Part shown: positions 1,666-64,000 of the stretch, piece by piece
Layout: every line of letters begins with the position of its first letter
Numbering within the stretch: position 1 is the first letter of the stretch
Origin: an uncultured Rickettsiales bacterium
Lineage (GTDB): Bacteria; Myxococcota_A; UBA796; UBA9615
Direction of reading: 5' to 3'
DNA: 64,000 nt
Assembly: GCA_964620495.1 (NCBI GenBank)
Contig: CAZUHI010000040.1
Coordinates: 5,323-69,322 of the forward strand
Program-made: the position numbers and the translations under genes
Notes under the pieces: model-generated
The model's input: the letters and a program-made list of their open reading frames with translations, nothing else
Databases searched by the model: none
Told to the model about the DNA's origin: nothing

Positions 1666-5024
<3,359 letters not shown>

Positions 5025-5100: not shown

Positions 5101-5382
5101 TCACAAGGTCGAGTCGTCGTCGTCGAAGGTGGAGTCGTCGTCGCCCGCGTCGTCGTCGTCGAACGGGCCGCGGCCTCCGCAGGCGGCGCACTCGAGGGAG
5201 TCGAGGTACGGCGGGGCGCAGAAGCCGGCCACGCAGGCGTGGGACCGCGTGCTGCTGAAGCTGCCGCAGTCGCAGCTCACGAAGCAGTCGAGGTCGCGCT
5301 CGCACGCGGCCTCGGGGGAGCAGCTGCAGCCCGTCCCCAGCGCGAGCAGGGAGAGCAGGAGCGCGGCCGGCAGGTGTCTCAT
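5101..5382 (-). CDS. Small Cys-rich lipoprotein with poly-Asp C-terminal tail (93 aa)
   Basis: ATG at 5382 gives MRHLPAALLLSLLALGTGCS (lipobox). There are 10 Cys in 93 aa, and the C-terminus reads DDDDAGDDDSTFDDDDSTL. The start overlaps the xseA stop (ATGA, 5379-5382). The rest of listed ORF 5101..6093 is Arg-rich noise. Confidence 0.6.
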   Translation of the reverse strand: MRHLPAALLLSLLALGTGCSCSPEAACERDLDCFVSCDCGSFSSTRSHACVAGFCAPPYLDSLECAACGGRGPFDDDDAGDDDSTFDDDDSTL

Positions 5383-34875: not shown

Positions 34876-36495
34876 TCAGGGGTAGGTGACCTCCATGGTG
34901 TAGTCGGCGCCCTGGGGTCCGCCGGGGTCGTCCTTGAGCTGGAGCAGGACGAAGTAGAAGCCGAGCTCGTCGGACGTCCACGACACCGTCTCGAGGGGGC
35001 CGTCCGTCTCGGAGGCGTCGAGCACGCTGCCGTCGGGGTGCAGCAGGTACACGTCGATGTCGCCGTCGGCGGGGTCGAAGGCCACGTCCACGGTGAGGGT
35101 CTCGCCGATCCACAGCAGCCGCGAGTACCAGTCGTCGTCGGTCGGGCAGATGTTGAGATCGACGTACGAGCCCGGCGCGACGCCGATGGCCTCCTGCTCC
35201 TGATCGTTCGGCTCCTGGATGTCCGGCCAGCACTGCGTCGTGCTCGCCCCGCCCCACGTGAGGGAGTACGGCACGCCCATGCCGACGCCCGCCTCGGTCG
35301 CGAGGGTGACCTTGGCGAAGTAGGCCTCGAAGACGGGCGCCGTGAAGGTGCCCACGGCCTGCCCCTCGCTCGTCGCGATGGCGCCGACCTCCGTCCCCCA
35401 GCGGTCGTACATGAGCATGTCGAGGTCGCCTTCGGCGGGGTCCCAGTCGATCGTGACCTCGATCGCCGCGCCGGCGTCCGAGTAGCTCTTGTACCAATCG
35501 GTGTCCGTCGCGCACGCGTGCAGGCCCGGGTAGGACTCCTGGATCACGGGCGACGACCAGTCCTGTCGGTCGTTGTACTCGAACATGTCCGTGGGGCAGC
35601 CGTCGGCCCACGTCTGGCGGATCTCCAGGTCGTAGACGTTGCCGTAGTACTCGCCGCGCTCCACCGCCGTCACCACCTCGATGCCGTACGCCCCCTCGGA
35701 CGGCTCGGGCGGGAAGTCGTAGACGACGTACTCCGCCGCGTCGGTGGTCCTGGACTCGCGCAGCAGGTTGCCGTCCCAGTCGTAGAAGGCGAGGTCCAGA
35801 TCGCCCTCGTCGGGGTCGTGGCGCAGCCAGATCTCGAGGCGCTCGCCCGCGAAGCGCGTGGTCTCGAACCAGTCCGGCGAGATGGGACAGACGAAGTAGT
35901 TCCACCACAGGTTCGGGTGGATGTGCGACGCGTGCTGGAGGTCGTCGTTGGGCTCTCGGGGGTCGTCCAGGCAGAAGTCGACGGGCTGATGACCGACGTC
36001 GAGCATGTACTCGACCCCGTCCTCGAGCGTGACCTCCTCCACCGGGGCCACCACGACGTAGTGGAGCCCGGACTCGACCGCGGTGAACTCGAGGCGCTCG
36101 TCCTCGTCGACGTTCGCGGACGACGCCACCAGCGCGCCGTCCGGGTCGTAGAGATACAGGTCCACGTCGCCGCCGCCCGTCCCCGCCGTGAACCACAGCT
36201 GCACGAGCAGGACGTCGAAGGCGTCCATGTGCATCGAGTACCAGTCCTCGTCGCCGTCGCAGGCGCGCAGGCCCGGGTAGCTCTGGGAGTGGATGCCCGC
36301 GGCCGCCTCGAGATCGTCGTTGGGCTCGAGCTCGTCGGTGCACGAGTCGTCCACCGCGTCGTCGTCGTCCACGGCGTCGTCGTCGTCCGCGGCCTCCGGA
36401 GTGGGGGCGGGCGACGCCTCGGTGTCGGCCGGACCGGTGTCGCTGCACCCCAGCAGGGCGGCACAGAGCAACACGACGCGCAGGCGAGCGACCAT
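34876..36495 (-). CDS. Lipoprotein with four tandem PPC (pre-peptidase C-terminal)-like domains
   Basis: ATG at 36495 gives MVARLRVVLLCAALLGCS, followed by a poly-Asp tether. Four repeats each open with E(P/Y)ND......Y.GL.(A)C...D.DWY and contain GD(L/V/I)D(L/M/V)(Y/M)(L/F/Y)YD. Confidence 0.75.
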   Translation of the reverse strand: MVARLRVVLLCAALLGCSDTGPADTEASPAPTPEAADDDDAVDDDDAVDDSCTDELEPNDDLEAAAGIHSQSYPGLRACDGDEDWYSMHMDAFDVLLVQLWFTAGTGGGDVDLYLYDPDGALVASSANVDEDERLEFTAVESGLHYVVVAPVEEVTLEDGVEYMLDVGHQPVDFCLDDPREPNDDLQHASHIHPNLWWNYFVCPISPDWFETTRFAGERLEIWLRHDPDEGDLDLAFYDWDGNLLRESRTTDAAEYVVYDFPPEPSEGAYGIEVVTAVERGEYYGNVYDLEIRQTWADGCPTDMFEYNDRQDWSSPVIQESYPGLHACATDTDWYKSYSDAGAAIEVTIDWDPAEGDLDMLMYDRWGTEVGAIATSEGQAVGTFTAPVFEAYFAKVTLATEAGVGMGVPYSLTWGGASTTQCWPDIQEPNDQEQEAIGVAPGSYVDLNICPTDDDWYSRLLWIGETLTVDVAFDPADGDIDVYLLHPDGSVLDASETDGPLETVSWTSDELGFYFVLLQLKDDPGGPQGADYTMEVTYP

Positions 36496-36607
36496 GGCTC
36501 CGTCAGGGTACCCCCCGGGCGACACGAGGCGGCAGGGTTCCCCAGGTCTCGGTTGCCCCGAGGGCGCCTCCTGCGGTCTATTCCCGGCCCCGCCCGAGGT
36601 ACGCCGC

Positions 36608-38203
36608 ATGTCGAAGAATCAGCCCTGGCCCGCCAAGGAAGCCACCGCCCTGCTCAAGCACCTCGAGAAGGTGGGCGGCGACGGCCCGGTGTTCTTCGAG
36701 ACCGGCTACGGCCCCTCGGGGCTGCCTCACATCGGCACGTTCGCGGAGGTCGCGCGCACGACGTTCATCCGCCGCGCCTTCGAGCGCGTCTCGGACCGGC
36801 CGACCACGCTCATCGCCTTCAGCGACGACACCGACGGCCTGCGCAAGGTGCCGCTGAACATCCCGAACAAGGAGCTCGTGGAGCCGCACCTGGGCAAGCC
36901 GCTGTGCGACATCCCGGACCCGTTCGGCACCGACGCGTCCTTCTCCGCCCACATGAACCGGCGGCTGCGGGAGTTCCTGGACTCGTTCGGGTTCGACTAC
37001 GACTTCCGCAGCTCGGCCGAGATGTACCGCACGGGCGTCTTCAACGACACGCTCCGCCTGCTGCTCCAGAAGCACGACGCGGTCCTCGACATCATCCTGC
37101 CGACCCTGCGCCCCGAGTCCCGCGAGGGCTGGTCGGCGTTCATGGTCATCTGCGAGGGCTGCGGGCGGAACCTCACGACCACCACCACCGGCTACCACCC
37201 CGAGTCGGACGAGCTCTCCTACAGCTGCGACGGATCGCGCTCCAAGGGCCTGCCGTCGTGCGGTCACGCGGGCCGCACGTCCGTCCTGGACGGTCGCGTG
37301 AAGGTCGGCTGGAAGGTCGACTGGGCGCTGCGTTGGTTCACGTTCGGCGTGCACTACGAGATGTACGGCAAGGACCTGATCGAGTCGGCCCAGCTCAGCG
37401 CGCGCATCGTCCGCGCCCTCGGCGGGACGCCTCCGATCGGCCTCTTCTACGAGATGTTCCTGGACGAAGACGGCAAGAAGATCAGCAAGTCGGTGGGCAA
37501 GGGGATCAGCGTCGATCGCTGGAAGTCCTACGCGCCGGTCGAGTCGCTGCTCGCGTTCCTCTACCAGAACCCCCGCAAGGCGAAGCGGCTGCACTACGGG
37601 ACGATCCCGCAGTTCACGGACCAGTACCTCAAGGAGCTGAGCCGGTGGACGAGCCAGGACGCGGACGAGCGGTTCTGGAACCCGTCGTTCTTCTACTTCG
37701 CGGACGAGGCGTCGCGCCCCACGTGGGACGTGCCGATCACCTACGGGCTCGTGAAGAACATGGTCGCGTGCATGGGCGAGGACGACCCCGACGTCGTGCG
37801 CGGGTACCTGAAGCGGTACGACGCGCGGGTCGGCGACGCGGCTCACGCGCCCCTGGCGGAGGCCCTCGTCTCCGGGGCGATGGCGTTCGACGCCGAGTTC
37901 GAGGCACCCAACCGACACAAGCAGGCGCCGCCTTCGGAGATGGCGCCGATCGTCGCCAAGCTGGCCGACGCGCTCCTGTCGCACCAGAGCCTCGACGCCG
38001 AGGAGGTGCAGGGGTTGGTCTTCTCCACCGCGCGCGCGCACGAGGTGGAGCCGAAGGATCTTTTCAAGACGCTCTATCAGGGCCTGATCGGGCAGAATCG
38101 CGGCCCGCGGTTCGGGGGCTTCACCCTCGCCATGGGCGTCGAACGCATGGCGGCCACCCTGCGGGAGCTGGCCGCGAACCCCGCACCGCCGAGCGAAGAA
38201 TGA
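36608..38203 (+). CDS. lysK: Lysyl-tRNA synthetase, class I
   Basis: ATG at 36608. HIGH motif (PSGLPHIGTFAE), KMSKS motif (KKISKSVGKG) and an overall class I LysRS layout. The 5' part of listed ORF 36293..38203 is not coding. Confidence 0.9.
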   Translation: MSKNQPWPAKEATALLKHLEKVGGDGPVFFETGYGPSGLPHIGTFAEVARTTFIRRAFERVSDRPTTLIAFSDDTDGLRKVPLNIPNKELVEPHLGKPLCDIPDPFGTDASFSAHMNRRLREFLDSFGFDYDFRSSAEMYRTGVFNDTLRLLLQKHDAVLDIILPTLRPESREGWSAFMVICEGCGRNLTTTTTGYHPESDELSYSCDGSRSKGLPSCGHAGRTSVLDGRVKVGWKVDWALRWFTFGVHYEMYGKDLIESAQLSARIVRALGGTPPIGLFYEMFLDEDGKKISKSVGKGISVDRWKSYAPVESLLAFLYQNPRKAKRLHYGTIPQFTDQYLKELSRWTSQDADERFWNPSFFYFADEASRPTWDVPITYGLVKNMVACMGEDDPDVVRGYLKRYDARVGDAAHAPLAEALVSGAMAFDAEFEAPNRHKQAPPSEMAPIVAKLADALLSHQSLDAEEVQGLVFSTARAHEVEPKDLFKTLYQGLIGQNRGPRFGGFTLAMGVERMAATLRELAANPAPPSEE

Positions 38204-39753: not shown

Positions 39754-40382
39754 CCGTCGACCTCCACCGAGACGGACGGCAGGGCCTCCTCGACCACCGG
39801 GGCGAAGCTCCCGAAGAACGCACGGACGGACGCGGGATCGGTCGCCTCGAAGGTCACGACCGTCTCCGCGGGGTCCGTCAGATCGACCGTGAACGCACGG
39901 ATCCCTCGCGTGGCGACCAGGGTCGGCCTCGGGGTGCCGCGCCACACGTCGTCGTCCTCGTCGCGCACCAGGTCGAAGAACTGCAGCAGCCCCGGGCGGC
40001 GGCGCGCGGCGTCCCCCCCGAGCATCTCGACCCACTCGTCGCCGATCGTGAGGACGGCGAAGCGCGGCGTGGTCGCTCGGGCGCCCTCGTAGATCCCGGC
40101 CCGCACCGCGCTCGGGTCGCCCGGGTGGCGATACCGCACGGAGACCTCGGACACCGGGGACGTCGCCGGACGACGCAGCGCGAAGGCGACGTTCAGCGTG
40201 GGGTAGGCGAGCACCGGGAGGACGTGGACGTTGAACCACCCGAACTTCGCGACGTAGGCGCGCAGGTGCGGGGAAGAACGCAGCGGCCGCGTCAGCCACA
40301 GCCCCGCGGCGACGTGCAGGAGGACCGCGGCGGCGAGGACCGCCGGGAGGTGTTCGATGCCGATCAGCCGCCGAGGCCCCAC
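39750..40382 (-). CDS. Membrane-anchored hypothetical protein
   Basis: N-terminal TM (HLPAVLAAAVLLHVAAGLWL), then a ~170-aa soluble domain with coding-like composition. The start is uncertain: either GTG at 40382 (19-nt overlap with the upstream gene) or CTG at 40367 (CTGA overlap). Confidence 0.5.
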   Translation of the reverse strand: MGPRRLIGIEHLPAVLAAAVLLHVAAGLWLTRPLRSSPHLRAYVAKFGWFNVHVLPVLAYPTLNVAFALRRPATSPVSEVSVRYRHPGDPSAVRAGIYEGARATTPRFAVLTIGDEWVEMLGGDAARRRPGLLQFFDLVRDEDDDVWRGTPRPTLVATRGIRAFTVDLTDPAETVVTFEATDPASVRAFFGSFAPVVEEALPSVSVEVDG

Positions 40383-41197
40383 ACGCCGGGGCACACCGAG
40401 CACTCGATGACGTCCCACTCGATGCCCGCGCCGCCGAGCGACACCTCGAACCCGAGCAGCCCCACGAACCCGCGGACCCGCTGGGTGCCGACGGGCGAGC
40501 CCCCCTCCTGCAGCTCGTTCTCGAGCGCGTCGATGAACTGCCCGTCGGGGAGCTGGTGGCTGCCCTCCGTGATCGTCTCGGCGCTGAAGTTGAAGCCGTC
40601 GACGTCGGTGAAGAACCACCCCGTCTCGTAGGTCTCGCCGACGAGATCCGTGGCGAGCTTCGCGCGCTTGAAGATGACCTGCCCCTGGCCGTCGGACACC
40701 TGGTCGCCGAAGGGATCGTGCACGACCGTCCGCAGCCACTTCATCTCGCCCGTGCCGTCGAGGCCGACCCAGTGCGTGGAGTTCTGGCCCAGGGCCCGGT
40801 CCACCAGGATCTCGAAGGCCGCCATGTCTGCGTCCCAGGCGGCGTCCAGCGACGGTCCGCCGCGGCGGGAGAGGACCTGCACGATCACGTCGTCCACCAC
40901 CGGGTCGCCGCCCCCGGCGTCCACCGTCTCCGTGTAGCGCCACCGGTTGCCGACCCCCAGGGCGAACCACTGCTCCTCCTCGGGGTACGACGGCCCGGGA
41001 TCGACCGCGTCGTCGTCGTCCGTCGCGTCGTCGTCGTCCACCGCGTCGTCGTCGTCCACCGCGTCGTCGTCGTCGTCCACGGGGTTGAAGCCGTCGTCGT
41101 CGTCGTCGGACGGCGCTGGGGTTTCGAACGTGGGGCACGCGACCATGGCCAGCAGGGCGACACAGGGCGCGGCGATGAGGGCAGTAGTGCGAGACAT
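40364..41197 (-). CDS. Lipoprotein with long poly-Asp tether, unknown function
   Basis: 277-aa ORF. Lipobox LLAMVAC. The tether reads DDDDDGFNPVDDDDDAVDDDDAVDDDDATDDDDAVD. A globular domain follows. Confidence 0.7.
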   Translation of the reverse strand: MSRTTALIAAPCVALLAMVACPTFETPAPSDDDDDGFNPVDDDDDAVDDDDAVDDDDATDDDDAVDPGPSYPEEEQWFALGVGNRWRYTETVDAGGGDPVVDDVIVQVLSRRGGPSLDAAWDADMAAFEILVDRALGQNSTHWVGLDGTGEMKWLRTVVHDPFGDQVSDGQGQVIFKRAKLATDLVGETYETGWFFTDVDGFNFSAETITEGSHQLPDGQFIDALENELQEGGSPVGTQRVRGFVGLLGFEVSLGGAGIEWDVIECSVCPGVWGLGG

Positions 41198-41259
41198 GAC
41201 GAAATCTTAACGGAGGTGCCCGGGCGTTCCCCCGGCGGGATCTGCTATCTGGGAGGGCC

Positions 41260-42945
41260 ATGTCCATTCGAAGGTCTCTTCTCTTCCCGCTCCTCGCCCT
41301 CGGCCTGGTCGCCGCGTGCCCCCAACCGACCCCGCGGGGCGACGACGACGACTCGGGCTCCGCCGACCTGGGCGACGACGACGACGCCGGGGACGACGAC
41401 GACGATCCCGGCGCGATCTGCGACCAGCTCGAGCTCCCGCGCCGCGCGTTCCACGAGGGCCCCTACGGCGGCCTGCGCCACGACGTGGCCGAGGACTTCA
41501 CCGTGCGGACCAAGCGCGGAGAGTTCTGGAACCTCCGCGAGCAGTTCTCGGGCTGCGAGTCGTACATCTTCCTCATGGACAACCTCACGGTGTCCCCCAA
41601 CGACCCGACGCCGCTGATCGAGAAGACCGACGACCTCGCCGAGCTGGTGCGGCGCTCCCCGCCGAACGTGCACTACTTCTTCATCTCCCGGGCCGACTCG
41701 GGCGCGGCGGAGAACGAGGTCACCGACGCCCTGCGCGCGCGGCTGGACGGGCTCCTGAAAGACTGGCCCGAGGACATGGAGGAGGACGCCGCCCACTGGG
41801 ACGCGCGCCTCCACGTGGTGAACGACCGCCTCTGGAACATGGACAACTGGCTCGACAACGCCCTCGGGACGCACGGCGCCCGAGGCCTCGCCGTCGATCG
41901 TCTCCAGACGGTGCGGGGCGTGGGCAGCCTCGCGGACGTCCTGCGTCGAGACAACACCCTGCAGTGGCCGTGGGAGGACAACATCGCCTACGCCGCTCAC
42001 GAGGCGCAGTACTACAACTACGAGGCCGACCGGCAGGACCGCCTGGACGCCGAGCAGAACGTCACCATCGTGACGCCCTGGGACGGCGAGATCCTTCAGG
42101 AGTTCGAGGACACCGACGTCGAGTTCCCGGACGCGGCGGCGATGGCGGGCTTCGACACGCTGGAGATCGACCTCACGGCCTGGTGCCCCAACGAGTTCCT
42201 GCTCGAGCAGAGCAACTGCGGCGCCTGGGACTACCTGGCCCACATCCATGTGCGCGACGAGGCGGACGAGAACTGGATCGAGATGGCCCGGTTCATCACG
42301 ACGTACCACCGCGCCGGCCGCTACGTCGTGGACGCCACGCCCGCCCTCGTGGAGCTGGCGAGCGGCGGCACGCGCCGCATCCGCTACAGCTTCGCGCCGT
42401 CCTGGAACGTGCAACCCACGTGGACGAAGCTCGACTTCCGCTTCAGCAACCGCGGCAAGGGCCACCGGCCCACCGAGTCGACGTTCCTGTTCTCCGGAGG
42501 CGGCTTCAACCCGAGCTACAACGAGGGCCGCGAGCCGATCGAGGTGGCCGTGCCCGCGTCGGCGGCGAAGGTCGAGCTGGTCGCGATCATCACGGGCCAC
42601 GGCGCAGCGGACGGCAACCAGTGCGCCGAGTTCTGCGACCACCAACACGCCTTCACCGTCAACGGCACCGAGCACGTCAAGACCCACCCCGCGATCGGCA
42701 ACCCCGAGGGCTGCCTGGAGACCATCGGCACGGGCACCGTCCCCAACCAGAGCGGCACCTGGTGGACCGGACGAGGCGGCTGGTGCCCCGGCCGGCAGGT
42801 CGATCCCTGGGTCGTGGACGTCACCGACATCGTCACCCCCGGCGAGACCGCCACCATCGAATACCGAGCCCTGTGGGACGGACGGAATCCCCCCGCCGAC
42901 GGCGGCAACATCGTCCTGACCTCCTGGCTCGTGGTCTACGAGTAA
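41260..42945 (+). CDS. Lipoprotein with poly-Asp tether and C-terminal PNGase F C-terminal-like domain
   Basis: 561-aa ORF preceded by GGGAGGG. Lipobox LGLVAAC. The C-terminal region (ITGHGAADGNQCAEFCDHQHAFTVNG...WWTGRGGWCPGRQVDPW) resembles, from memory, the peptide-N-glycosidase F C-terminal domain family. Confidence 0.65.
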   Translation: MSIRRSLLFPLLALGLVAACPQPTPRGDDDDSGSADLGDDDDAGDDDDDPGAICDQLELPRRAFHEGPYGGLRHDVAEDFTVRTKRGEFWNLREQFSGCESYIFLMDNLTVSPNDPTPLIEKTDDLAELVRRSPPNVHYFFISRADSGAAENEVTDALRARLDGLLKDWPEDMEEDAAHWDARLHVVNDRLWNMDNWLDNALGTHGARGLAVDRLQTVRGVGSLADVLRRDNTLQWPWEDNIAYAAHEAQYYNYEADRQDRLDAEQNVTIVTPWDGEILQEFEDTDVEFPDAAAMAGFDTLEIDLTAWCPNEFLLEQSNCGAWDYLAHIHVRDEADENWIEMARFITTYHRAGRYVVDATPALVELASGGTRRIRYSFAPSWNVQPTWTKLDFRFSNRGKGHRPTESTFLFSGGGFNPSYNEGREPIEVAVPASAAKVELVAIITGHGAADGNQCAEFCDHQHAFTVNGTEHVKTHPAIGNPEGCLETIGTGTVPNQSGTWWTGRGGWCPGRQVDPWVVDVTDIVTPGETATIEYRALWDGRNPPADGGNIVLTSWLVVYE

Positions 42946-42973
42946 GCTCCCCTCTCCGAAACGAAGGAACCCC

Positions 42974-43570
42974 ATGTCTCCGATCCGCACGACCCTCCTC
43001 CTGTCCGCGTTCCTCGCCCTGCTGTTCGCCGGGGGCGCCTGCGAAGGCAGCGCCATCATCGGCGGGGACGACGACGACGCGACCGACGACGACGACGCGA
43101 CCGACGACGACGACGCGGGCGACGACCTCTGCGGCCCCGAGCCCGAGCTCGACGAAGACGGCGTCGTCTACGGCGGCGAGGTGGTGATCTCCGGCAGCGG
43201 CGAGGACGCCACGTGGCGGGGCTGCGAGGTCGAGCACTGGATCGAGGACGACGAGGTCGAGTGCGTGGAGGTCTACGCGGTGACCGGCGAGGTCCGCCGG
43301 GTCACGGACGGCGGCACGATCTTCGCGCTGTCGTTCACCTACGATCCCGGCGAGTCGACCTGCGGCGAGGGCGAGGACTACACCACCTCCTACCGGGTCT
43401 CCTACCGCGGCGACACCGCGATCCTCGCCTACCGGTGGGGCCGGGGACAGCCCTGGGAGGAGTTCGCCGAGTCCGAGTTCGAAGAGACCGCCCTGGGCGT
43501 GTCCTTCGAGTACCTCAGCGAGGCGTTCGAGTGGGACGGCGACGACGAGCCCGGCAACGGCGGGTTCTGA
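42974..43570 (+). CDS. Lipoprotein with poly-Asp tether, unknown function
   Basis: 198-aa ORF. Lipobox LLFAGGAC. The tether reads DDDDATDDDDATDDDDAGDD. The body is acidic. Its stop abuts the stop of the convergent gene (TGATCA). Confidence 0.65.
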   Translation: MSPIRTTLLLSAFLALLFAGGACEGSAIIGGDDDDATDDDDATDDDDAGDDLCGPEPELDEDGVVYGGEVVISGSGEDATWRGCEVEHWIEDDEVECVEVYAVTGEVRRVTDGGTIFALSFTYDPGESTCGEGEDYTTSYRVSYRGDTAILAYRWGRGQPWEEFAESEFEETALGVSFEYLSEAFEWDGDDEPGNGGF

Positions 43571-57042: not shown

Positions 57043-58341
57043 TTAGGGAGCGGAGTCGTCGTCGTCCGCGGCGGAGTCGTCGTCGTCCCCGAAGCACGAG
57101 TCGGGCAGGTCGTACGGGAAGCCCGCCGAGTCGTCGTCGTCGCCGACGCCGTCGAGGATCTCGAGGTCGATGCCCGAGCTGAGGCGGCGCGGGAGCGTGT
57201 CCACGAGCAGCCAGCCGGGCCGCTGCTCCAGGACCACCCCGAACATGAAGGCCAGACCGAGGTCCTGCCCGGGCGCGGTGAGCCAGACGAGGCGCTTGTT
57301 GCCGTCCGCGATGAGCAGATCGCAGGGAGCCTCTTCGGTGTAGACGAGGTCCCCGTCGTCCACCCAGCCGACCTCGGTGTAGACGGCGCCGGTGAGGTTC
57401 GGGACGGCCACCGTCTCCGAGAGGAGGTTCGCGTCCAGGGCGCCCAAGTGGTCCGCGGGAGGCGTGCCGTTCACGGGCCAGTCGATGAGGTCGTCGCGCA
57501 GGTTGTTGCTGGCCGGGGTCACGAACAGCACCGGGTTCGCGGGCGCGGCGATCTCCATCAGGCCGGACAGCGAGCCGTGCCAGGCGGCGACGAGCGAGCC
57601 GTCGGGGAACGAGATGTCGGTGTCCACGGGGACGTCGCCGCCCGTGACGGACAGCAGACGCACGCGCATCGTGAGTCCCTGGGAGCTGTTCACGCCCTCG
57701 GGGTGGTGCTCGAGGTTCAGCTCGCCGCCGAGCACGTCGCGCGCGACGTTCCAGCCGGGCCCACCGCTGCCGATCGCGTCGGTCACCGCGTCCACGTCCT
57801 TCGCGTCGATGTACACGACCCAGTCGCCGGACCCCGCGAGCAGCGTGTCGCCCGCGTTGAAGCCGCCGCTGCCGTCGCCGTCGACGTACGCGAACGGGGC
57901 GAACATGGCGGCCGAGACGCCCTTGGCGACCTCCGTGAGGAGGCCCGCGTCGACGGTCTCTTCCACGTAGTTCGCGTAGGTGGCCTGGCCCGCGACCAGC
58001 GAGACCTTCGCCGCCGCGATGAGGTCGGAGTCCCACTCTTCGCCGAACGTCGGGCCCTTCGCCTGGGCGAGGAAGAGTCCGGCGCGCACGTCGCCCGCGG
58101 GGACCGAGCCGTCTGTGGGCTGGTACGCGAGGCTGCCGCCGATGGGGATGCCCTCGGGGATGACGAGGTCGTCGTCGTTCGGGCCCGCGTCGTCGTCGTC
58201 CACGCCCGCGTCGTCGTCGTCCGTGACGTCCGGCGGCGTGGGGTCGACGGTGCCGTCTTCCGTGGGGCAGCCCTGCCAGAGGAGGAGCGCCCCGACGCCG
58301 AGGCCCAGCGTGGTCCAGAGAATGCCGCGGGAGTCGGTCAT
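57043..58341 (-). CDS. Lipoprotein with N-terminal and C-terminal poly-Asp tracts
   Basis: ATG at 58341 overlaps the Rieske gene stop (ATGA). Shows LLLWQGC (lipobox), DDDDAGVDDDDAGPNDDD, and a C-terminus DDDDSAGF...GDDDDSAADDDDSAP. Confidence 0.65.
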   Translation of the reverse strand: MTDSRGILWTTLGLGVGALLLWQGCPTEDGTVDPTPPDVTDDDDAGVDDDDAGPNDDDLVIPEGIPIGGSLAYQPTDGSVPAGDVRAGLFLAQAKGPTFGEEWDSDLIAAAKVSLVAGQATYANYVEETVDAGLLTEVAKGVSAAMFAPFAYVDGDGSGGFNAGDTLLAGSGDWVVYIDAKDVDAVTDAIGSGGPGWNVARDVLGGELNLEHHPEGVNSSQGLTMRVRLLSVTGGDVPVDTDISFPDGSLVAAWHGSLSGLMEIAAPANPVLFVTPASNNLRDDLIDWPVNGTPPADHLGALDANLLSETVAVPNLTGAVYTEVGWVDDGDLVYTEEAPCDLLIADGNKRLVWLTAPGQDLGLAFMFGVVLEQRPGWLLVDTLPRRLSSGIDLEILDGVGDDDDSAGFPYDLPDSCFGDDDDSAADDDDSAP

Positions 58342-59571: not shown

Positions 59572-60444
59572 ATGCAGCTGTCCCGCCCCCTCGCGCTCTT
59601 CCTCGGCTCCCTCCTGACCCTCCCCGCGGCGGGCTGCCGCTACTTCGACGAGGCCCCCGCGGACGCGGAGCCCGTCGCGGAGCCCGAGGTGGATCCCGGG
59701 GATCCCGAGGATCCCGAGGACCCGAGCGACGAGCTCCCCGCGGCGGCGTACGAGGCGCCGGTCTTCTCCGACTTCGCGCTCCTCAGGATCGACCTCGGCG
59801 GCGGCCTCGTCGAGGAGCACGACGCGCTCTCGCACCAGCGCGACCTGTCCGACTACTCCAACTTCGTCGCGGGCGCCGTCACCGCGGCCGCGGGCATCGC
59901 CATCGGCGCGGCCGTCACGGGTCCGCCCAGCCTCGTGCTCGAGGACACCGTGGTGAACGGCAGCGTCTCGAACCCGTCCACGTTCGTGTGGGAGTTCGCT
60001 GAGACGACCGTCATCGACGGCACCACCTACGACGCCGTGGCGAGGTACGAGGCGCGCTGGTACGGGTGGGAGGTGGCGATGGTCGTGTCCGCCTCCGGCC
60101 TCGAGGTCGAGTTCACCGACGTCGTGTGGTTCGACGGCGAGATGTCCTACGACGGCGTGGTCGGCACCTGGCAGCTCTACGACCTGGACGGCGCCGAGAC
60201 CGCGTCCGTGGACTACCTGCAGAACGACCAGGGCGAGTTCGTCGCGGTCATCGCGTCCGACGCCGGGTACCTCACGGCCACCGTGTTCGGCTCTTCGCGC
60301 CTCATCACCGGCACCAACGCGTCCGGCGAGTCCGCCGCGGTGGGCTGGGACGCAGACTCCTACGAGGGCTTCGTCTCCCACCCCGACTACCTGAACGGCG
60401 CCGCGGCCTGCTGGGACGGCGCCCTGATGAACAGCGGCTGCTGA
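59572..60444 (+). CDS. Lipoprotein with acidic Pro/Glu/Asp tether, unknown function
   Basis: ATG at 59572 gives MQLSRPLALFLGSLLTLPAAGC. The tether reads EPEVDPGDPEDPEDPSDE. The body is beta-rich. The 5' 240 codons of listed ORF 58849..60444 are noise. Confidence 0.65.
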   Translation: MQLSRPLALFLGSLLTLPAAGCRYFDEAPADAEPVAEPEVDPGDPEDPEDPSDELPAAAYEAPVFSDFALLRIDLGGGLVEEHDALSHQRDLSDYSNFVAGAVTAAAGIAIGAAVTGPPSLVLEDTVVNGSVSNPSTFVWEFAETTVIDGTTYDAVARYEARWYGWEVAMVVSASGLEVEFTDVVWFDGEMSYDGVVGTWQLYDLDGAETASVDYLQNDQGEFVAVIASDAGYLTATVFGSSRLITGTNASGESAAVGWDADSYEGFVSHPDYLNGAAACWDGALMNSGC

Positions 60445-61566: not shown

Positions 61567-64000
61567 TACATGGACCGTCGGTAGCGCCCGCCGACCTCGT
61601 ACAGGGCCGCGCTGATCTGGCCGAGGCTGGCCACCCGCACCGTCCTCATGAGCTCCGCGAAGATGTTCCCGTCCGCGAGGGCGACCTCCTGGAGCCGCTC
61701 CAGCGCGACGGGGCGGGCGTCGGCGTGGGCGTCCTGGAACGCGCGCACCGCCGTGATCTGCCCGGTCTTCTCCTCGGTCGTGGCGCGACGGATCTCCATG
61801 TCCTCGGAGTCGCTCGCCATCCCGCCCTTCGGGTTCAGGTAGGTGTTCACGCCGATGATGGGCAGCGAGCCGTCGTGCTTGCGGTGCTCGTACAGCAGCG
61901 ACTCCTCCTGGATCTTGCTGCGCTGGTACTGCCGCTCCATGGCCCCCAGGACGCCGCCCCGTCGGCTGATCGCCTCGAACTCGGCGAGCACGGCCTCCTC
62001 CACCAGCTCGGTCAGCTCCTCGACGACGAACGCCCCCTGGAGGTTGTTCTCGTTCTTCGACAGCCCGAGCTCCTGCTGGACGATCATCTGGATCGCCATG
62101 GCGCGCCGCACGGACTCCTCGGTGGGGGTCGTGATCGCCTCGTCGTAGGCGTTGGTGTGCAGCGAGTTGCAGTTGTCGTTGAGGGCCAGCAGCGCCTGCA
62201 GCGTGGTGCGGATGTCGTTGAAGTCGATCTCCTGCGCGTGCAGCGATCGGCCGCTCGTCTGGATGTGGTACTTCAGCATCTGCGCCCTCGGCGAGGCCCC
62301 GTACCGGTCGCGCATGGCGACGGCCCAGATGCGGCGCGCGACGCGCCCGACGACCGTGTACTCCGGGTCCAACCCGTTGCTGAAGAAGAAGGACAGGTTC
62401 GGGCTGAACTCGTCGATGTCCATGCCGCGCGCGAGGTAGTACTCGACGATCGTGAAGCCGTTGGCGAGCGTGAACGCGAGCTGGCTGATGGGGTTCGCCC
62501 CCGCCTCGGCGATGTGGTAGCCGCTGATCGACACCGAGTAGTAGTTCCGCACCCCCTTGTCGATGAACCACTCCTGGATGTCGCCCATCATCTTGAGGGC
62601 GAACTCGGTGCTGAAGATGCAGGTGTTCTGGGCCTGATCCTCCTTGAGGATGTCGGCCTGCACCGTCCCGCGGACGACCTCGAGGGTCCGGTCCACGATC
62701 GCAGCGTGCTCCTCGGGCCCGGGGTGCCGCTGGTTCACGGACGCGAACACGTCGACCTGCTGGTCGATGGCCGTGTTCAGGAACATCGCGAGGATGATCG
62801 GCGCGGGCCCGTTGATCGTCATGGAGACCGACGTGCTCGGGGCCACGAGGTCGAAGCCGCCGTAGAGGATCTTCATGTCCTCCAGCGTGCAGATGGAGAC
62901 GCCCGACTCCCCGACCTTGCCGTAGATGTCGGGCCGCTCGTGAGGGTCCTCGCCGTAGAGCGTGACGCTGTCGAAGGCGGTGCTGAGCCGCTTCGCGTCG
63001 TCGTCCTTGCTGAGGTAGTGGAAGCGCCGGTTCGTGCGGATCGGTGGACCCTCGCCCGCGAACTGCCGCTTCGGCGCCTCGGCCGTGCGCTTGAACGGGT
63101 ACAGCCCCGCCGTGTACGGGAAGTGCCCGGGCAGGTTCTCGAGGTAGCGCCAGCGGAGGATGTCTCCGTCGCCCGTGAAGGGAGGCAGCGCGACCCGCGG
63201 AATCGCCAGGCCGCTCAGCGACTCCGTGGTCGTGGGCACGGAGATGTCCTTGCCCCGGACGGTGTACGTGAAGGTCCCCGACGCATACGCCTCGCGCAAC
63301 GCCGACCAGGAGGCGAGCAGCTCCCGAGAGTCGCCGCCGAGCTCGGAGTCGAGCTCCGCGATCCGGGCGTCGAGAGCTGCGGTGTCCACCTCGGACTTGG
63401 CGAGCCGCAGCGCAGAGAGGCGTCGAGCGACGTCCGCCTGCTCCCCCGCCCGCGCCTTGTACCCCCGCACGCACTCCGCGATCTCCTCGAGGTACCGCAC
63501 CCGACCCGCGGGGATCAGCGCGTCGGCCGCAGGGGACAGGCGGGAGGGGGGACGCTCGATCGTCGACGACGACGACCACCGGCCGGGCGCGACCCTCTCG
63601 AGGCCGGCCACGAGATCGCAGTACAGCGCCGTGACCCCGGGGTCGTTGAAGCGGCTCGCGATCGTCCCGAACACCGGCAGCTCCTCGTCCGTCGGCGACG
63701 GGCCGAACAGCTCGCGGGAACGCCGGTACTGCTTGCGCACGTCGCGCACCGCGTCGAGGCCGCCGCGTCGTTCGAACTTGTTGAGGACGACCAGGTCCGC
63801 GAAGTCGATCATGTCGATCTTCTCGAGCTGGGACGGCGCGCCGTACTCCGGCGTCATCACGTAGGCCGTGACGTCCGACAGATCGACCACCGCCGAGTCG
63901 CCCTGGCCGATGCCCGACGTCTCCAGGAGCACCAGGTCGAACCCCGCCAACCGCAGCAGGTCGAGCCCCTCCGCCGTCGCCTGGGACACCTCGCCGCCGC
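61566..64000 (-). CDS. icmF: Fused isobutyryl-CoA mutase (MeaB-like G-domain + B12-dependent acyl-CoA mutase core), 5'-truncated by the window edge
   Basis: End of the G-domain ([17 protein letters not shown]), a linker, then the mutase TIM-barrel domain ([46 protein letters not shown]). The reading frame runs off the window, so the B12-binding N-terminus is not seen. Confidence 0.9.

Follow-up and report, generated by a model that had tools for sequence, protein, structure and literature searches.

Introduction

Outer-membrane lipoproteins of E. coli often separate their lipidated Cys from the folded part of the protein: about half of them have a disordered linker of more than 22 residues, and trafficking by the Lol machinery needs the length and the disorder of this linker, not its sequence (El Rayes et al., 10.1101/2021.01.05.425367). 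LolE, moreover, binds the lipoprotein linker independently of sequence (PMC12846838). Here we describe runs of aspartate that follow the lipobox Cys of five lipoproteins encoded in a stretch of 64,000 nucleotides (nt) from an uncultured bacterium filed as Rickettsiales (contig CAZUHI010000040.1 of assembly GCA_964620495.1, positions 5,323 to 69,322; this whole stretch is called the window in the following). The observation holds up: it has strong statistical support, extends across the lineage and does not depend on protein family. We consider it probable, with some reserve, that the tracts are a lineage-specific, polyanionic and slippage-tuned form of the disordered linker between lipidated Cys and folded domain.

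The linkers of E. coli outer-membrane lipoproteins are the closest functional parallel. Like the tethers of the window, the linkers of RcsF, NlpD and Pal are unstructured, exceed 22 residues, lie between Cys and fold and are found on unrelated lipoproteins. Length and disorder matter in these linkers and sequence does not; in the lineage of the window, likewise, length is conserved and sequence is not. The E. coli linkers share no composition or repeat, whereas here a module of four-Asp (Asp4, or D4) blocks occurs in one lineage as a slippage-prone tandem repeat. Unlike the E. coli linkers, this tether also has a recurrent pre-spacer with Pro at +2 and Arg-Gly(n). In terms of architecture, the closest parallel is found in the AAEAP (H.8-type) linkers of Lip, Laz and AniA in Neisseria, which are also lineage-specific low-complexity repeats right after the lipobox (PMC5542605). 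The AAEAP repeat is Ala/Pro-rich, nearly neutral and limited to a handful of proteins, whereas the tether described here is polyanionic and found on a third to half of the lipoproteome. Its repeats consist of DDDD plus 2-3 small residues, and the resemblance is one of architecture only.

The lipoprotein export signal (LES) of Bacteroidota consists of 2-4 acidic residues at the critical positions +3 to +6, e.g. C-X-K-(D/E)2, or SDDDD in B. fragilis (PMC5080379). LES and poly-Asp tether are alike in being acidic runs past the Cys of a subset of lipoproteins, many of which are enzymes acting on glycans or polymers. The hosts differ, LES being found in Bacteroidota and the tether in a relative of Myxococcota, and so do position and extent: the acidic part of the tether covers between 4 and more than 60 residues and starts at +6 to +23 in representative proteins, with the first Asp runs of the window at +9, +10, +11, +17 and +21. 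In E. coli, the rule for avoidance of Lol is Asp at +2, and none of the five window genes has Asp there. A preliminary description of this DNA had likened the tracts to both signals. This likeness fails on position, as the known signals lie at +2 to +6 and the tracts of the window begin from +9. Among cultured phyla in which the destination of a lipoprotein (inner membrane, outer membrane or matrix) depends on residues close to Cys+1, the nearest is that of Myxococcus xanthus, where Lys at +2 is the mark of the inner membrane and Ala at +7 that of the matrix (Bhat et al. 2011, PMC3222651). These rules concern single residues, and a poly-Asp tract is not reported there. A literature search found no description of poly-Asp lipoprotein tethers.

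Poly-Asp tracts in the window

The window has a G+C content of 72%. Its source contig is present in several assemblies (ENA ERZ27249630 and ERZ27251152; JGI 3300024344), and the sequencing runs holding this stretch carry the label subsurface metagenome. To locate poly-Asp, runs of at least four Asp (D4+) were scanned in six frames, and coding frames were judged by local checks of frame composition. The scan returned 21 D4+ runs in seven open reading frames (ORFs). The run at 63565-63576 (+) was rejected as coding, being an antisense shadow of the real gene 61569-63998 that fails the frame-composition test. All 20 genuine runs fall in lipoproteins, six proteins in total: in five genes, 15 of them follow the lipobox Cys at positions +9 to +40, and 5 lie in the C-terminal tails of 57043-58341 and 5101-5382. 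Counted over 11,908 confident codons with 6.4% Asp, 13 D4+ runs were seen against a chance expectation of 0.19.

A lipobox rule of the PROSITE PS51257 type asks for an early Lys/Arg, an uncharged hydrophobic core and a lipobox Cys at position 15-35. All five tethered genes pass this rule, the Cys being residue 17, 20, 21, 23 or 25; the residue at +2 is Pro in three genes and Glu or Ser in the others, and the linkers span 28-55 residues. The mature domains are mutually unrelated (best BLASTP E = 0.24), as had been claimed at the outset. Pfam recognised PPC in one protein and N-glycanase_C in another, and no Pfam family matched the remaining three. The DNA of the tracts is arranged in arrays with a period of 18 or 21 nt, in which GAC makes up 93 of 95 Asp codons (98%), compared to 631 of 702 elsewhere (90%). 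The positions that the preliminary description gave for the five genes and their tracts were correct, and the poly-Asp tail of 5101-5382 and the PEDPEDP repeat of 59572-60444 could both be confirmed (Table 1).

Table 1. Tethered lipoproteins of the window, their acidic tracts and related features (a slash stands after the lipobox Cys; aa, amino acids; L001, an assembly from another sample)
Feature	Position	Strand	Description
277-aa lipoprotein	40364..41197	-	Cys at codon 21, 55-residue linker, beta-rich domain; N-terminus MSRTTALIAAPCVALLAMVAC/PTFETPAPS; first D-run at +11
Tether of the 277-aa lipoprotein	40988..41134	-	PTFETPAPS then D5, D5, D4, D4, D4; array with 18-nt period
561-aa PNGase F-related lipoprotein (PF09113)	41260..42945	+	N-terminus ...GLVAAC/PQPTPRG then D4, D4, D5; first D-run at +9
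Tether of the PNGase F-related lipoprotein	41320..41418	+	PQPTPRG-DDDD-SGSADLG-DDDD-AG-DDDDD-PGAI, 33 residues
198-aa lipoprotein	42974..43570	+	no Pfam match; N-terminus ...FAGGAC/EGSAIIGG then D4, D4, D4; first D-run at +10
Tether of the 198-aa lipoprotein	43043..43126	+	EGSAIIGG-(DDDDAT)2-DDDDAG-DD
18-nt DDDDAT unit	43067..43084	+	in the window, missing from L001; sole indel over 11.8 kb
539-aa lipoprotein with PPC-type domains	34876..36495	-	N-terminus ...AALLGC/SDTG...EAA then D4, D4; first D-run at +21
Tether of the PPC lipoprotein	36346..36444	-	SDTGPADTEASPAPTPEAA-(DDDDAV)2-DD
432-aa lipoprotein	57043..58341	-	within aryl-polyene-like operon; acidic tract at each end; N-terminus ...LLWQGC/PTEDG...VT then D4, D4, D3; first D-run at +17
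N-terminal tether of the 432-aa lipoprotein	58168..58266	-	PTEDGTVDPTPPDVT-DDDDAGV-DDDDAGPN-DDD; 21-nt period
C-terminal acidic tail of the 432-aa lipoprotein	57046..57141	-	DDDDSAGFPYDLPDSCFGDDDDSAADDDDSAP; three D4
C-terminal poly-Asp tail of the 93-aa Cys-rich lipoprotein 5101-5382	5104..5160	-	DDDDAGDDDSTFDDDDSTL
PEDPEDP-type 9-nt repeat, linker of lipoprotein 59572-60444	59691..59726	+	acidic, Pro-periodic, not poly-Asp

The MYXO-CTERM tag consists of an invariant Cys motif, a transmembrane helix and a basic C-terminal tail (PMC11980579). The C-terminal Asp tails of the window were ruled out as such tags, because they end in DDDDSAP and DDDDSTL directly before the stop and have no hydrophobic segment.

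Distribution in the genome and in the lineage

In order to extend the survey to the same genome, the window was combined with walks along contigs encoding identical proteins, which gave a sample of about 121 kb. In this sample all 31 D4+ runs lie in lipoproteins. Carriers of D4+ runs amount to 8 of about 17 lipoproteins and to none of about 90 other genes (hypergeometric estimate, p ~1e-7), so that the proposed enrichment of poly-Asp in lipoproteins over other proteins is borne out. A tether is present in six lipoproteins and absent from at least 10 (6 of about 16); the untethered ones include an M28 peptidase with PDZ domains, a 460-aa protein and a solute-binding protein. Among the tethered ones, the contig walk added L206:15449-16417, which begins with MRPFRTLLLLATCLTLVGC/INRTGRGGGGS followed by ten DDDDxx units. 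A cadherin-like lipoprotein, L219:11679-13535 (-), starts its mature part with C/GGRTGGGGGSS and has a D6-SAPA-D5 tract about 75 residues past the Cys, thus in the first repeat region and outside the tether. The isoelectric points of lipoprotein domains are about 4.05-5.1, compared to a median of 6.1 for other ORFs.

For the lineage sample, 80 loci from species-representative genomes were fetched by means of the neighbouring class I lysyl-tRNA synthetase (LysRS). The nearest LysRS relative of the window shares 93% identity. Relatives at 62-69% form a group of metagenome-assembled genomes (MAGs) that are labelled Deltaproteobacteria bacterium (UBA6601, a Tara Red Sea bin), "uncultured Rickettsiales" or "uncultured proteobacterium", and those of the following tier (42-56%) come mostly from Myxococcota (Polyangia, Bradymonadales, Haliangium, Kofleriaceae). 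The window gene itself, 36599-38203 (+), encodes a class I-type LysRS, the closest public relatives of which are filed as 'uncultured Rickettsiales'. With Myxococcota as the next relatives, the NCBI label Rickettsiales looks wrong. Loci with a LysRS identity of at least 62% were taken as the clade of the window (205 kb, 23 predicted lipoproteins), and other Myxococcota plus outgroups served as the comparison set (1.04 Mb, 61 predicted lipoproteins).

The two sets differ clearly. A D4 within the first 45 mature residues is found in 12 of 23 lipoproteins of the clade and in 1 of 61 from the other loci, which upholds the proposed lineage specificity of the tract; 34 of 41 D4+ runs of the clade lie at +2 to +60 from the lipobox Cys, compared to 1 of 16 elsewhere. 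Over the first 40 mature residues, the Asp fraction is 0.26 in the clade and 0.11 in the other loci, with net charges of -11.5 and -4.2, respectively. When the count is limited to other Myxococcota-type loci (847 kb), the tract is present in 1 of 57 lipoproteins. Altogether these counts indicate that the tract is specific to one clade and not general to G+C-rich Myxococcota. About a third to half of the lipoproteins in this bacterium and its close relatives are predicted to be tethered.

Pro at +2 is present in 8 of 23 clade lipoproteins and in none of the 61 others. Within the clade, it is seen in 7 of 14 tethered vs 1 of 9 untethered lipoproteins, a difference that is not significant (Fisher p = 0.086). 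In the window and in the clade loci L004, L007 and L010, this Pro is often followed by Pro or Thr, then by Arg near +5 and a run of Gly. Lipoproteins with the same tether are also encoded on the JGI metagenome contigs L163 (two genes) and L190, both of 60-62% G+C. The L190 protein reads C/PSGDDDDSSSSDDDDAA... and continues into an EPND-type PPC-like domain, as in the window gene 34876-36495.

The module across protein families

A profile made from 11 N-terminal modules was searched against 1.84 billion representative proteins and matched 102 of them at E <=0.001, nearly always at the extreme N-terminus. The strict lipobox rule passes 89 of these 102, and most of the others would pass a slightly relaxed form of it. 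The majority is without a Pfam match. The others belong to 31 Pfam families, each in at most two members, which supports the family independence that had been proposed; FG-GAP, lamin-tail, PPC, Ig-like, beta-helix, staphylococcal nuclease, endo/exonuclease-phosphatase, pectin acetylesterase and ricin lectin are among them.

In the 97 members that could be analysed, the Cys is followed by a near-neutral pre-spacer of 4-21 residues (median 9) with Pro at +2 in 44 members (45%), Arg at +5 in 31% and frequent Gly at +6/+7, so that the first Asp block begins between +6 and +23. The number of blocks per module is 1-11 with a median of 4, and the array ends a median of 34 residues past the Cys. The blocks are exactly four Asp long in 81% of cases and are separated by 2-3 residues of Ala, Thr, Gly, Ser or Val, a regularity that is partly selected for because the profile was built from D4 units. 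Measured from the start codon of the module representatives, the first Asp block is reached after a median of 31 residues (range 21-55).

Linker conservation and predicted disorder

Two families allowed a closer view of what is conserved. The PNGase F-related protein has hundreds of homologues, and a lipobox is recognisable in 84 of the 120 best-scoring ones that were examined. In all 84, a linker of 13-78 residues precedes the conserved domain Cys. Its composition differs: 19 linkers are poly-Asp, 24 Gly/Ser/Thr-rich, 15 Pro-periodic (e.g. PEPEPE or PDPDPD) and 26 mixed Asp/Ala/Gly/Pro. The poly-Asp ones belong to the closest relatives, and the Gly/Ser/Thr-rich ones to Minicystis and other Polyangia. 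Because orthologues elsewhere carry uncharged linkers, the linker is the conserved element and its charge a habit of the lineage. The parallel that the preliminary description drew with acidic sorting signals finds no support in this respect.

The second family is that of the 277-aa lipoprotein. The tract is kept in 7 of 7 orthologues from genomes with 65-93% LysRS identity, down to a domain identity of 35-40%. The linker measures 52-58 residues in every one of them, with Asp counts of 13-28 and units of DDDDAV, DDDDAT or DDDTG. This steady length combined with differing sequence suggests selection on length. In the AlphaFold2 model of the 277-aa protein, built with 10 orthologues, residues 1-70 reach a predicted local distance difference test (pLDDT) score of 43-64 and show no secondary structure, whereas residues 72-277 reach about 90 and are beta-rich. 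More than 22 residues between Cys+1 and the fold are therefore predicted to be disordered. Together with the conserved length, this agrees with the tether behaviour suggested at the outset.

Regarding the folded domain (residues 72-277), Foldseek returned weak matches to the half-barrel fold of LolA/LolB/VioE/DUF1849/LprG (E ~3e-4, TM 0.3-0.4), and no Pfam family matches it. The domain may carry a hydrophobic ligand.

Instability of the tract DNA

The preliminary description also expected the tract DNA to be a hot spot of length changes, and comparison of assemblies agrees with this. L001 and the window differ over 11.8 kb by one single-nucleotide polymorphism and one gap, the gap being the 18-nt unit listed in Table 1. 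A collapse by the assembler is unlikely at this site because the array of 54-60 nt is shorter than the assembler's k-mer. For the tether of L206:15449-16417, one assembly shows ten units and a second one six; this array measures 180 nt, so the difference could be an assembly artefact. The units within one gene have common spacer codons, pointing to local duplication rather than exchange between genes.

Other repeats of the same genome were seen to vary as well. Just right of the window, a protein with C-terminal (TPEP)n has 591, 607 or 611 residues (L206:17545-19320, L207:17441-19264, L211:1341-3176). On the left side, a secreted non-lipoprotein with N-terminal (EEPSE)n after its signal peptide differs by one 5-residue unit between assemblies (L216:8664-10004 vs L217:8649-10004; 446 vs 451 aa). 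In the window, the large acidic protein 2607-5012 (-) with (EP)n and PEPV repeats has 797, 801 and 803 residues in three assemblies. The instability is thus general to repeats and not specific to the Asp tracts. The (EEPSE)n protein also indicates that acidic N-terminal low-complexity segments are not limited to lipoproteins, though this one is based on Glu.

Logan contigs of three runs break inside the tracts. About 590-675 Logan contigs per run match the tracts at >=90% identity, with a summed depth of 150-400x that of the flanks; as a rough sign, such tracts are very numerous in that community, the depth figure not being a copy number. A metagenome scan used the pattern (GAC)4-N6-(GAC)4, in which N6 also admits uninterrupted (GAC)n of >=10 copies. 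Most of its 136 matches were non-coding repeats or pure poly-Asp, with surroundings that were eukaryote-like or unclear, and only L163 (two genes) and L190 encode lipobox tethers. Poly-Asp as such is therefore not specific to lipoproteins across life, which has little bearing on the lineage of the window.

Two further differences between assemblies lie outside the tracts. About 100 extra bases past a PhyH-family gene (window ~60767; L206:11201-11292) are present in one ENA assembly and missing in the window and the JGI assembly. To the left of the window, a group II intron-type reverse transcriptase (L216:4812-6335, RVT_1 + GIIM) has 507 vs 453 residues in two assemblies.

Discussion

The module is restricted to lipoproteins, sits on unrelated domains in one clade and has no structure in the model. 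Orthologues keep the module and its length but not its sequence, and the DNA of the module changes length by whole repeat units. Behind the lipobox Cys, the layout is a near-neutral pre-spacer of 4-21 residues, often with Pro at +2, Arg near +5 and Gly, followed by 1-11 Asp4 blocks. The neutral pre-spacer may leave room for the lipoprotein-processing enzymes and the Lol machinery. Repulsion of the charges, both mutual and from the anionic membrane, would keep the chain extended as a stand-off spacer of about 10-20 nm at most. Slippage in the copy number of (GAC)4-N6/9 units would generate length variants, from which selection may hold each protein near its preferred length, and the abundance of acidic residues could reflect an exported proteome that is acidified as a whole. 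Ribosomes are destabilised by acidic runs chiefly when these fall within the first ~30 residues (10.1101/2021.02.02.429294). Signal peptide and pre-spacer together would shift the first Asp block to a distance of about 30 residues from the start codon and hence out of this zone, and the interruption of the Asp runs may likewise spare the ribosome.

Several points weigh against this reading. The D4 blocks, Pro+2 and Arg-Gly(n) are more ordered than a generic spacer requires, and a machinery could read them. The role as linker or tether is a prediction, and the lipoproteins were called by a regular expression with a composition check and not by a trained predictor. The clade set holds orthologues, so that its 12 of 23 does not stand for 23 independent genes. 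The conservation of length comes from one family in seven genomes, and in the PNGase F-related family the poly-Asp linkers vary between 15 and 43 residues. Furthermore, the survey covers about 121 kb of this genome plus the loci of relatives.

The order of the module could mean that Cys-Pro...Arg-Gly(n)-(Asp4-x2-3)n is an address tag, i.e. a sorting signal of the lineage to the surface or to vesicles, or a means of avoiding Lol for type II secretion. The lipoprotein pullulanase, for instance, is kept away from Lol and taken by a type II secretion system. An address tag would fit the fact that not all lipoproteins of the genome are marked (6 of about 16) and the outward-acting type of the attached domains, which comprise nucleases, an esterase, lectins, Ig-like, FG-GAP, beta-helix, PPC and PNGase, the untethered set including the solute-binding protein and the M28 peptidase. 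It would also fit the Pro at +2 that accompanies the tract, being seen in 7 of the 14 tethered lipoproteins, in 1 of the 9 without a tether and in 44 of 97 representatives, but this association is not significant in the unbiased sample. Pro at this position is said to be able to retain lipoproteins in the inner membrane of E. coli, reportedly from work of Seydel et al. in 1999. Precedents exist in the acidic LES of Bacteroidota and in Acinetobacter, where the type II system brings lipoproteins to the surface (PMC12802150). However, the first Asp block lies outside the +2 to +6 of the LES and the +2 rule, orthologues of other lineages have uncharged linkers, and a block number of 1-11 that varies within a population would be odd for a recognition motif. 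We therefore regard an address tag as unlikely. In its fullest form, Cys-Pro-x-x-Arg-Gly(n)-(Asp4-x2-3)n would be an undescribed address code that takes about a third of the lipoproteins off the default Lol route (to surface, vesicles or type II secretion), with slippage varying the length of the stalk within the population; we hold this, too, to be unlikely.

The same repeats could also be a neutral by-product, in which any hydrophilic disordered linker is tolerated and GAC slippage in a G+C-rich genome with an acidic exoproteome fills the slot with no selection on charge. The indels of unit length between near-identical assemblies, the polymorphic (TPEP)n, (EEPSE)n and (EP)n repeats, the free shifts of linker composition among lineages and the GAC share of 98% all agree with this. 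It is hard to reconcile, however, with a tract that is kept at 52-58 residues in 7 of 7 orthologues of the 277-aa family, and with equally G+C-rich Myxococcota relatives that lack tracts. The Asp blocks are, moreover, limited to 4-5 residues and regularly interrupted, whereas the metagenome matches are mostly uninterrupted (GAC)n of >=10 copies on eukaryote-like contigs. A purely neutral origin thus seems rather improbable. Less probable still is that poly-Asp serves as a low-affinity, high-capacity store of Ca2+/Mg2+ or as an anchor to mineral surfaces near the membrane. Poly-carboxylates generally bind Ca2+ and control mineralisation (PMC10761707), the DNA comes from a subsurface metagenome and relatives are known from seawater, and the charge density is very high (net about -11 in 40 residues). 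Yet cation binding leaves unexplained why the tracts are placed only between anchor and domain and why orthologues have uncharged linkers, and the tracts are without a known Ca2+-binding motif (EF-hand, RTX repeat). The reading as a polyanionic, slippage-tuned linker remains the one that we favour.

Implications

Disordered linkers have only lately been seen as functional parts of lipoproteins, and the evidence for this comes nearly all from E. coli. In the uncultured, marine or subsurface lineage described here, the linker has been standardised: a defined part of the lipoproteins carries it as a polyanionic repeat of regular build. The tracts cause assembly breaks and length variation at the level of strains, and they provide an easy sequence marker in MAGs for exported, probably outward-acting and mostly unannotated proteins. 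A sorting code, if true, would be much more interesting than a variant of a linker, although it is the minority possibility. Overall, the lineage offers a natural experiment on what a lipoprotein linker needs in terms of length, charge and disorder, and on the question whether sorting information can reside in composition beyond Bacteroidota.

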